Of a DNA stretch of 8,610 bases, positions 6,577 through 6,827 are shown one piece after another (within the stretch, counting starts at the first letter, position 1; every line of letters begins with the position of its first letter). Under the pieces are notes generated by a model that saw only the letters and a list, made by a program, of their open reading frames with translations, did no database searches and was not told the origin of the DNA. Source of the DNA: a virus (taxonomy: Duplodnaviria > Heunggongvirae > Uroviricota > Caudoviricetes); IMG/VR virus record IMGVR_UViG_2778261121_000004, one strand, 5' to 3'. Both the position numbers and the translations under genes were made by a program.

Positions 6577-6788
6577 GTGCGCGAAAAATGCGCATGGTGC
6601 GCGGAATGGGCTAGAAATACATGTTTTGCGCACTTTCTTTGTATATATACAGAAAAAGTGCGCGGAATGGGTAAAATCATCCTGAAACCCGCATCATTAC
6701 TGGCTTTAGGCAATGCGCACTATGTTTAATCTTGCGCACCTAAGTGCGCGCCCGAATAAGTGCGCGGGAAAATGCGCGAGGTGCGCAG
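6577..6788. repeat. Iteron array with AT-rich tract; candidate origin of replication of the element
   Basis: Eleven copies of the core TGCGC[AG] in about 210 bp: GTGCGCG at 6577, 6597, 6658, 6744 and 6760; TGCGCA variants at 6588, 6627, 6713, 6732 and 6781; TGCGCG at 6773. The 14-mer GTGCGCGGAATGGG occurs twice (6597-6610 and 6658-6671), and TAAGTGCGCG twice (6741-6750 and 6757-6766). An AT-rich tract lies at 6633-6657. Confidence 0.6.
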
Positions 6789-6803
6789 AATAAGTAAATC
6801 ATT

Positions 6804-6827
6804 ACCGGGGTAACCCGGTTTTTTTAT
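6804..6827 (+). terminator. Rho-independent terminator
   Basis: Stem ACCGGG (6804-6809), loop GTAA, stem CCCGGT (6814-6819), followed by a run of T (6820-6827). Confidence 0.7.

Follow-up and report, generated by a model that had tools for sequence, protein, structure and literature searches.

The replication origin of phage-inducible chromosomal islands (PICIs) of Gram-negative bacteria is placed by Fillol-Salom et al. (2018, PMC6092414) in the region immediately 3′ of the initiator gene, and the same study reports that the rep-ori segment of the island EcCICFT073 maintains a temperature-sensitive plasmid, which rep or ori mutants do not. In the staphylococcal pathogenicity islands (SaPIs), rep is directly followed by 6-12 short iterons, which stand on both sides of an AT-rich centre (PMC9371898), and the SaPI Reps are self-loading helicases that read these iterons via a C-terminal winged-helix domain (Qiao et al., 2022, PMC9371898). 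Here we describe a dense repeat array that directly follows a rep gene in an 8,610-nucleotide stretch of DNA, IMG/VR record IMGVR_UViG_2778261121_000004 (hereafter the window). The element that carries it is a PICI, i.e., a small phage-parasitic satellite, inserted beside the fis gene of Escherichia coli. From its sequence and that of its relatives, we consider it very likely that the region 6574-6790 is the vegetative replication origin of this island, specific for the Rep protein encoded immediately upstream.

The closest relative is EcCI042, the PICI of E. coli 042, which presents the same gene order (int, helix-turn-helix/AlpA, YlcI, Icd-like, DUF4222, RepA-family helicase). Its 466-aa helicase is 57% identical to the Rep studied here and its origin has the same layout, in that direct iterons are placed at the stop codon, TGTATACA is enclosed by an inverted pair and a further cluster stands on the right. 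Nevertheless, it differs in the iteron core, AAAGTGAGG, and in a short Rep motif, EMKN (GTGCGCR and GENGRKA, respectively, in the present island), in the integration site (tqsA, against the fis 3′ end here), and in the downstream genes, an 83-aa gene and one for a single-stranded DNA-binding protein (SSB). EcCICFT073 is also syntenic with the present island, with a DUF4222 gene upstream of the initiator and the origin immediately 3′ of the initiator gene. That origin covers about 290 bp and contains AT-rich stretches surrounded by some 12 short iterons, which point in either direction, together with the same 22-bp element, there CTGAAAGCCGCGCCATTACTGG. The array described here very probably matches this published class of Gram-negative PICI origins, as a new allele and not as a new kind of element.

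The resemblance to SaPIs is of another nature. In both cases the iterons lie downstream of rep on both sides of an AT centre, with opposite orientations on the two sides. However, SaPI Reps are AAA+ helicases of superfamilies 3 or 6 (SF3 or SF6) and the present Rep is of the RecA type (AAA_25), there is no detectable sequence homology between SaPIs and this Rep, and the SaPI hosts are Gram-positive. The present Rep is not a member of the SaPI Rep family. Given these different motors, the origin would be SaPI-like in its working but not homologous. Ubeda et al., in 2007, are reportedly the source for the SaPI origin and its Rep.

Anatomy of the repeat array

A first-pass annotation, made from the sequence of the window, had counted eleven copies of TGCGC[AG] in about 210 bp and proposed a candidate origin. 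The count is borne out: plus-strand copies start at 6578, 6589, 6598, 6627, 6659, 6714, 6733, 6745, 6761, 6773 and 6782, spanning exactly 210 bp (6578-6787). The other 8.4 kb of the window hold three plus-strand copies (2517, 4580 and 5913) and, on the minus strand, the motif occurs once outside the array in the whole window (7711). When the window was simulated 5000 times under a first-order Markov model, the maximum count per 215-bp span never exceeded five and was usually one to three. That the array reflects chance clustering, or a coding feature such as the 50-aa open reading frame (ORF) at 6577-6729 or the antisense ORF at 6084-6713, is scarcely credible. Both frames do overlap the region in the mechanical ORF list, but the clustering lies far beyond the simulations, and related origins differ from this one by insertions, deletions and the iteron core, which would break any reading frame. 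Moreover, a permissive Rfam search of the whole window returned no credible match in the repeat region (best E=0.68, to a microRNA model), and in four lineages the iterons are conserved over their spacers, as described below, which contradicts both versions of this explanation.

The repeat unit is a directional 9-mer, (A/T)(A/G)(G/A)TGCGC(G/A), with the consensus AAGTGCGCG. Its 5′ purine-rich flank, usually AAG, sets the orientation of each iteron, eight being forward and three reverse (6627, 6714 and 6733). The exact consensus occurs four times (6575, 6656, 6742 and 6758), and longer repeats are superimposed on it: the two copies each of a 14-mer, GTGCGCGGAATGGG (6597 and 6658), and a 10-mer, TAAGTGCGCG (6741 and 6757), that had been reported at first pass are present, as are two copies of an 11-mer, AAAAGTGCGCG (6573 and 6654). 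The palindromic nature of TGCGCA had also been taken to suggest dimeric binding. This suggestion finds no support, since sister lineages have non-palindromic cores, among them GTGGGGGA and GTGAGG, at the same positions; the palindromy of TGCGCA is therefore incidental and the unit directional.

The array begins 2 bp past the rep stop codon (6571-6573), with the first iteron at 6575. Its left set (6575-6603, plus strand) is composed of three direct copies, AAGTGCGCG at 6575-6583, AAATGCGCA at 6586-6594 and TGGTGCGCG at 6595-6603, whose positions are conserved in loci of the same iteron type. It is followed by a central palindrome (6627-6664), in which a reverse iteron at 6627-6635 (reverse complement AAGTGCGCA) and a forward iteron, AAGTGCGCG, at 6656-6664 enclose an AT core. 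Around TATATATA, the two 18-nt arms of the inverted repeat adjoin each other (0 nt apart) and show 89% complementarity, and a single strand of this region folds as a hairpin (z=-4.55). Finally, the right set (6714-6787) holds six copies, reverse at 6714-6722 and 6733-6741, and forward at 6742-6750, 6758-6766, 6770-6778 and 6779-6787; these positions are conserved in three related loci (L173, L158 and L168) and partly in a fourth (L086).

The 25-bp AT-rich tract noticed at first pass, CTTTCTTTGTATATATACAGAAAAA at 6633-6657, is indeed there, with 20% GC and centred on TATATATA. No other 20-25-bp stretch of the intergenic region is as unstable, and the tract falls in the least stable 0.6% of all 25-bp windows of the 8,610 nucleotides, which makes it a candidate DNA-unwinding site. 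Relative to the tract at 6636-6655, four iterons are located to the left or at its left edge and seven to the right, and the inverted pair abuts it. This arrangement bears on the proposal that the iterons mainly serve copy-number control or incompatibility (“handcuffing”), or act as a decoy titrating Rep, with initiation taking place elsewhere. Iteron plasmids do use extra iteron sets for copy control. Nevertheless, we regard this proposal as very unlikely, given that the window contains no second cluster, only the three scattered plus-strand copies, and that the sole cluster is the one containing the conserved AT core.

An intrinsic terminator follows the array on the plus strand (6804-6826), in keeping with the first-pass annotation, and consists of a 6-bp stem (ACCGGG/CCCGGT) with a GTAA loop (6804-6819) and a T7 run. 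In L086, a relative whose Rep is 68% identical, the origin is likewise succeeded by a hairpin and T-run terminator, with ATG(G)CC behind it; hence, the terminator seems to be a part of the module and not a chance match. A promoter scan of 6400-7000 gave no sigma-70-like promoter. Furthermore, the interval 6560-6930 contains no DnaA box (no match to TTATNCACA at up to one mismatch), no consensus sites for IHF or for the oriC 13-mer, and no GATC cluster (a single GATC). The absence of DnaA box and IHF consensus sequences fits a self-sufficient initiator.

The upstream Rep and the iterons

The rep gene (5158-6573, plus strand) encodes a 471-aa putative initiator-helicase, annotated as “helicase RepA family” and matching Pfam AAA_25 (E=2e-40). 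Three parts can be distinguished in it: an N-terminal alpha/beta domain (residues ~1-135), a RepA/RecA-type AAA_25 core, and a predicted C-terminal winged-helix domain (~405-468). The core matches in sequence RSF1010 RepA (1g8y, E=1e-4), and a fold search with the full-length model retrieved KaiC, Twinkle, Rad51 and DnaB. As this search identified only the RecA-type core, the C-terminal domain was modelled alone. It then adopts three helices followed by a beta hairpin, with a predicted local distance difference test score (pLDDT) of 81, and its best matches in the PDB are the winged-helix DNA-binding domains of LexA (template modelling score, TM, 0.70), DtxR/IdeR and Zur. A Pfam search revealed no O-protein or Rep_3 domain in the Rep C-terminus.

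In a scan of one genome per species, 80 loci with Rep relatives were recovered from many Enterobacterales genera, none of which carries a TGCGCR array. The alignment of the rep 3′ end plus 450 bp for 36 of them reveals a layout that is found nearly everywhere. Some three direct iterons sit next to the rep stop codon or on it; beyond a spacer, a TGTATAyA core is preceded by an inverted iteron and followed by a forward one, and another spacer, of ~55 bp, leads to 3-5 more iterons. The 5′ flank AAGTG is common across lineages and the iteron core is lineage-specific (GTGGGTA/GTGGGGA, GTGGGGGC, GTGGGGGA, GTGCGGC and GTGAGGA in the 36 loci); the TATATA/TATACA core, in turn, is kept across lineages with different iterons. 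Altogether, this layout is found behind rep in about 45 homologous loci, which come from many genera of the Enterobacterales, and it does not depend on the gene further downstream, which may encode a capsid-like protein, SSB or, on the opposite strand, a HEPN protein.

Loci with the same iterons were recovered by a structural pattern scan of IMG/VR, which gave seven contigs with GTGCGCR arrays behind Reps 83%, 80%, 71% and 68% identical to the one described here. Among four such GTGCGCR lineages, the columns are invariant in 60% of iteron positions, 50% of the AT core and 77% of the 22-bp element, against 14% of the remaining spacer (Fisher p=9e-10 for iterons versus spacer).

Residues 438-444 of Rep, GENGRKA, lie at the start of the third helix of the winged-helix domain, just before an invariant F-x-R-W-L, and are the variable part of this domain. 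Across the approximately 45 loci, they track the iteron core. The motif G[ED][NS]GR[KR]x accompanies GTGCGCR in 10/10 loci, [DE]K[AV]RKS accompanies GTGCGGC in 7/7, and TKH accompanies GTGGGGA/GTGGGTA in 5/5; KK goes with GTGGGGG in 17 of 18 loci, and KN with GTGAGG in five of seven. This association is modular and not simply phylogenetic, because a relative with 91% identity to Rep in the helicase core and 40% in the motif (P0003) has GTGCGGC iterons, and because the L168 group, with a different N-terminus and 71% identity, keeps both the motif class and the GTGCGCR iterons. Moreover, four predictions were made before the DNA was inspected: those for P0003 and P0097 held, that for P0029 gave a mixed result, and P0109 fits only the rule stated at the level of the motif. 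These data support that the iterons are cognate to the Rep of the island itself.

The same covariation bears on a function in packaging or recombination (a pac, cos or excision-control site) instead of an origin. PICIs carry helper-type cos or pac sequences and need cis sites for excision (PMC6092414). Yet the repeat core covaries with Rep, and not with int or terminase; there is no lambda/phi80-type cosN core (GGGCGGCGACC...) anywhere in the island; and the attachment (att) repeats, as well as arm-type repeats with the sequence GTGTAGTCAG, are found at the island ends, away from the array. We deem such a function highly improbable.

A different explanation is that of an operator array devoid of origin function, through which Rep or another island protein would control read-through from rep or the operon starting at 6924. 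In its favour, the array separates two transcription units and has a terminator behind it, repressors typically contain winged-helix domains (LexA and DtxR/IdeR being the best fold matches here), and many iteron-binding initiators are also autoregulatory. Nonetheless, no sigma-70-like promoter was found in 6400-7000, and the array accompanies rep whichever gene lies downstream and on whichever strand. In addition, the presumed binding domain is fused to a helicase, and an AT core clamped by inverted iterons and accompanied by two flanking sets matches the published layout of PICI and SaPI origins. An operator without origin function thus appears unlikely; a secondary autoregulatory role for the binding of Rep is possible.

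One of the loci with a Rep of this type deserves a separate comment. It is found in Klebsiella pneumoniae pKp_Goe_795-4 (CP018459.1, locus L320), a sequence of 16,971 bp deposited as a circular plasmid. Besides int, it encodes a RepA-type Rep, whose GTGCGGC iterons are arranged in the layout described above, as well as capsid, adaptor, terminase and tape-measure proteins. It resembles a capsid-forming satellite that has been caught in closed circular form. Such a closed 17-kb circle with a related rep/ori would be an indirect hint of autonomous replication.

Proposed initiation at the array and its relation to known origins

Taking the array as the origin, the following succession of events may be envisaged. 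The winged-helix domains of a Rep ring helicase would read the directional 9-bp iterons, AAGTGCGCG, of which the inverted pair would clamp the ~20-bp TATATATA tract. Rep oligomers would bind cooperatively on both sides, distorting and melting the AT core, and Rep, as a RecA-type (SF4-like) helicase, would load itself onto the strands thus exposed, needing neither DnaA nor another loader. Initiation would then be completed by the primase and Pol III of the host. The rep transcript, for its part, would cross the origin and end at the terminator at 6804-6826.

Several points weigh against this interpretation. For this element, the case for binding, melting and replication is a computational one. 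EcCICFT073, whose origin is the tested one, uses a 584-aa initiator of the primase family and the iteron CTGTCTACC/GGTAGACAG; as this initiator is unrelated and the iteron different, the tested function carries over to the present island only by analogy and synteny. The AT tract covers only ~20-25 bp and its stability is unremarkable at the 40-bp scale, so that it must be considered short. As for the protein, the AlphaFold model of Rep has a mean pLDDT of 71.6, with parts of the core at low confidence, and the winged-helix matches have marginal E values (0.02-0.1), though with TM scores of 0.6-0.7. Furthermore, the motif and core counts given above include related sequences and are not phylogenetically independent. 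A code based on one residue, that preceding the conserved Phe, was rejected, since P0109, with GESGRKSF, has GTGCGCG iterons where GTGCGGC was predicted; therefore, only the association at the level of the seven-residue motif holds. Even so, the initial proposal of an origin is supported by the conserved layout, the covariation of Rep motif and core, the conservation of iterons over spacers and the agreement with the published PICI layout, and we maintain the origin as the very likely function of the array.

Other well-known replicons share part of this design. The satellite P4 replicates by means of its own helicase-type initiator, alpha, which binds type I iterons via a C-terminal winged-helix domain and is independent of DnaA. 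Alpha combines a primase with an SF3 helicase, and P4 needs two cis regions, ori and crr. In contrast, the present island has a single cluster and a RecA-type helicase: no distant second repeat cluster comparable to crr is found in the window, which covers all of the island but its last ~0.9 kb. The analogy with P4 is also drawn in PMC6092414.

Iteron plasmids such as pPS10, R6K, F and P1 also have initiator sites beside an AT-rich unwinding element and the rep gene. However, they present tandem iterons of 17-22 bp, DnaA boxes, loading of the host DnaB and WH1-WH2 initiators without a helicase, unlike the array described here, where the unit is of ~9 bp, no DnaA box exists in 6560-6930 and Rep has no Rep_3 domain. 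Lambdoid origins of the O-like class, in turn, resemble the present one in their iterons and AT-rich region, in being crossed by the transcript of their own initiator, and in an iteron, CATGTGCGG, similar to the one found here. They are nevertheless located inside the initiator coding sequence, and their initiator, not being a helicase itself, requires a DnaB-type helicase in addition; here, the array is intergenic and Rep is itself a helicase. The 22-bp element is shared with them.

The 22-bp element and the host island

This 22-bp element, CTGAAACCCGCATCATTACTGG, lies on the plus strand in the spacer between the central palindrome and the right set (6682-6703), with the consensus CTGAAAsCCGCnnCATTACTGG. 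It is kept across RepA-type origins with different iterons, being inverted in two RepA-type loci, and is also present, again between iteron sets, in the EcCICFT073 origin (L195, 7183-7204), which depends on an unrelated initiator. Besides, it occurs between two CATGTGCGG sets inside the O-like replication gene of Stx2a phages, CUS-3 and HF4s, and further sites were found in a lambdoid prophage (L202, ~4148-4169) and in the Klebsiella circle (L320, ~10113-10134). At least 120 exact matches exist in IMG/VR, for a rough chance expectation below one, and the flanks of the element are unrelated between initiator classes. P22 gene 18 is, we presume, the analogue of the lambdoid O-like replication gene. 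A literature search found no description of the element, and a search on the anatomy of the P22 origin likewise gave nothing usable.

It is possible, if rather doubtful, that the element represents a portable, initiator-independent origin module, common to at least three unrelated initiators (RepA-type helicase, primase-family and O-like). If true, it could act as a dock or start for a shared host component, such as primase, a polymerase loader or a nucleoid protein, which would amount to an undescribed common step of initiation; it would also constitute a point of competition between satellite and helper.

Immediately upstream of rep, the DUF4222 gene (4838-5161, plus strand; Pfam E=1e-13) encodes 107 aa, and its stop codon overlaps the rep start (ATGA). 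This protein had been put forward at first pass, alongside Rep, as a candidate binder of the repeats, for which no evidence was found computationally. The DUF4222 gene is located directly 5′ of the initiator gene in EcCICFT073, EcCI042 and L315-L318, and, of the 38 primase-type loci open to scoring, 37 have it in this place as well; within this family of islands, it constantly accompanies the initiator gene on the 5′ side. In Rep, the N-terminal domain (residues 1-135, window 5158-5560) is a separate module, weakly Toprim-like (Toprim_3, E=0.046), and is replaced in some RepA-type relatives (the L168 group and P0109). Its identity to the N-termini of initiators of the primase family (DUF5906, DUF927, P4-family), whose genes also lie 3′ of DUF4222, amounts to 50-63%. 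The Rep N-terminal domain may be the partner of the DUF4222 protein.

The E. coli GPEC1186 chromosome matches the window at 100% identity; this exact allele is rare, being present in one of 5426 complete E. coli genomes. Annotation and Pfam scans delimit an island of ~8.5 kb between yhdJ and fis, in the order int-AlpA-Icd-DUF4222-rep, with the repeat region next, and then small genes and one that is distantly capsid-like. A tyrosine integrase gene, int, occupies 1183-2406; the AlpA domain of an AlpA-type regulator is encoded within 3162-3479; and Icd-like genes lie between the AlpA gene and the DUF4222 gene. The island is flanked by a direct repeat of ~80 bp with one 1-nt indel, its attL copy at 908-987 of the window and its partner at L001 14908-14986, outside the window. 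As this repeat holds the last fis codons, the island integrates into the fis 3′ end and restores fis. The yhdJ-fis site is absent from the 2018 list of PICI att sites (PMC6092414). Just inside each end, GTGTAGTCAG is repeated twice in tandem (window 1116-1137; L001 14882-14903). These pairs look like integrase arm-type or core-type binding repeats, and are reminiscent of the repeated att cores that have been listed for other E. coli PICIs. Gram-negative PICIs are characterised by a terminal integrase gene, an AlpA-type regulator, modules that all run rightward, a length of about 8-12 kb, and flanking att repeats at an att site of their own. The end integrase, the AlpA regulator, the flanking att repeats, the size of ~8.5 kb and the synteny with the published EcCICFT073 and EcCI042 identify the host element as a PICI.

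Some further observations concern the rest of the island. The 317-aa ORF at 7657-8610 shows a distant match to the major head protein family phrog_617 (E=4e-6), and its positional counterpart in a Salmonella relative encodes Phage_cap_E; the ORF is probably a satellite gene related to capsids. The interval 2400-3158 has a low GC content (30-36%, vs ~48% elsewhere) and encodes, directly 3′ of the integrase gene, a 252-aa protein without Pfam or PHROG match, a candidate accessory or defence gene. Beyond the window, at the right end of the island (L001 14260-14726), two short pseudogene fragments of Rha-family regulators are annotated, which suggests decay or past recombination at that end.

The findings leave the current picture of PICI biology unchanged. 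The array would mark the site at which copying of this satellite begins, and a minimal rep-ori cassette can be delimited at ~5158-6830. As the initiator is of the RecA type and SaPI initiators are AAA+, the same origin logic appears to have been built on a different motor. Furthermore, the correspondence between a short motif of the Rep winged helix and five iteron cores constitutes a natural “specificity table,” which would explain how related islands could coexist without cross-talk, and offers a small system in which origin specificity may be studied or re-engineered.

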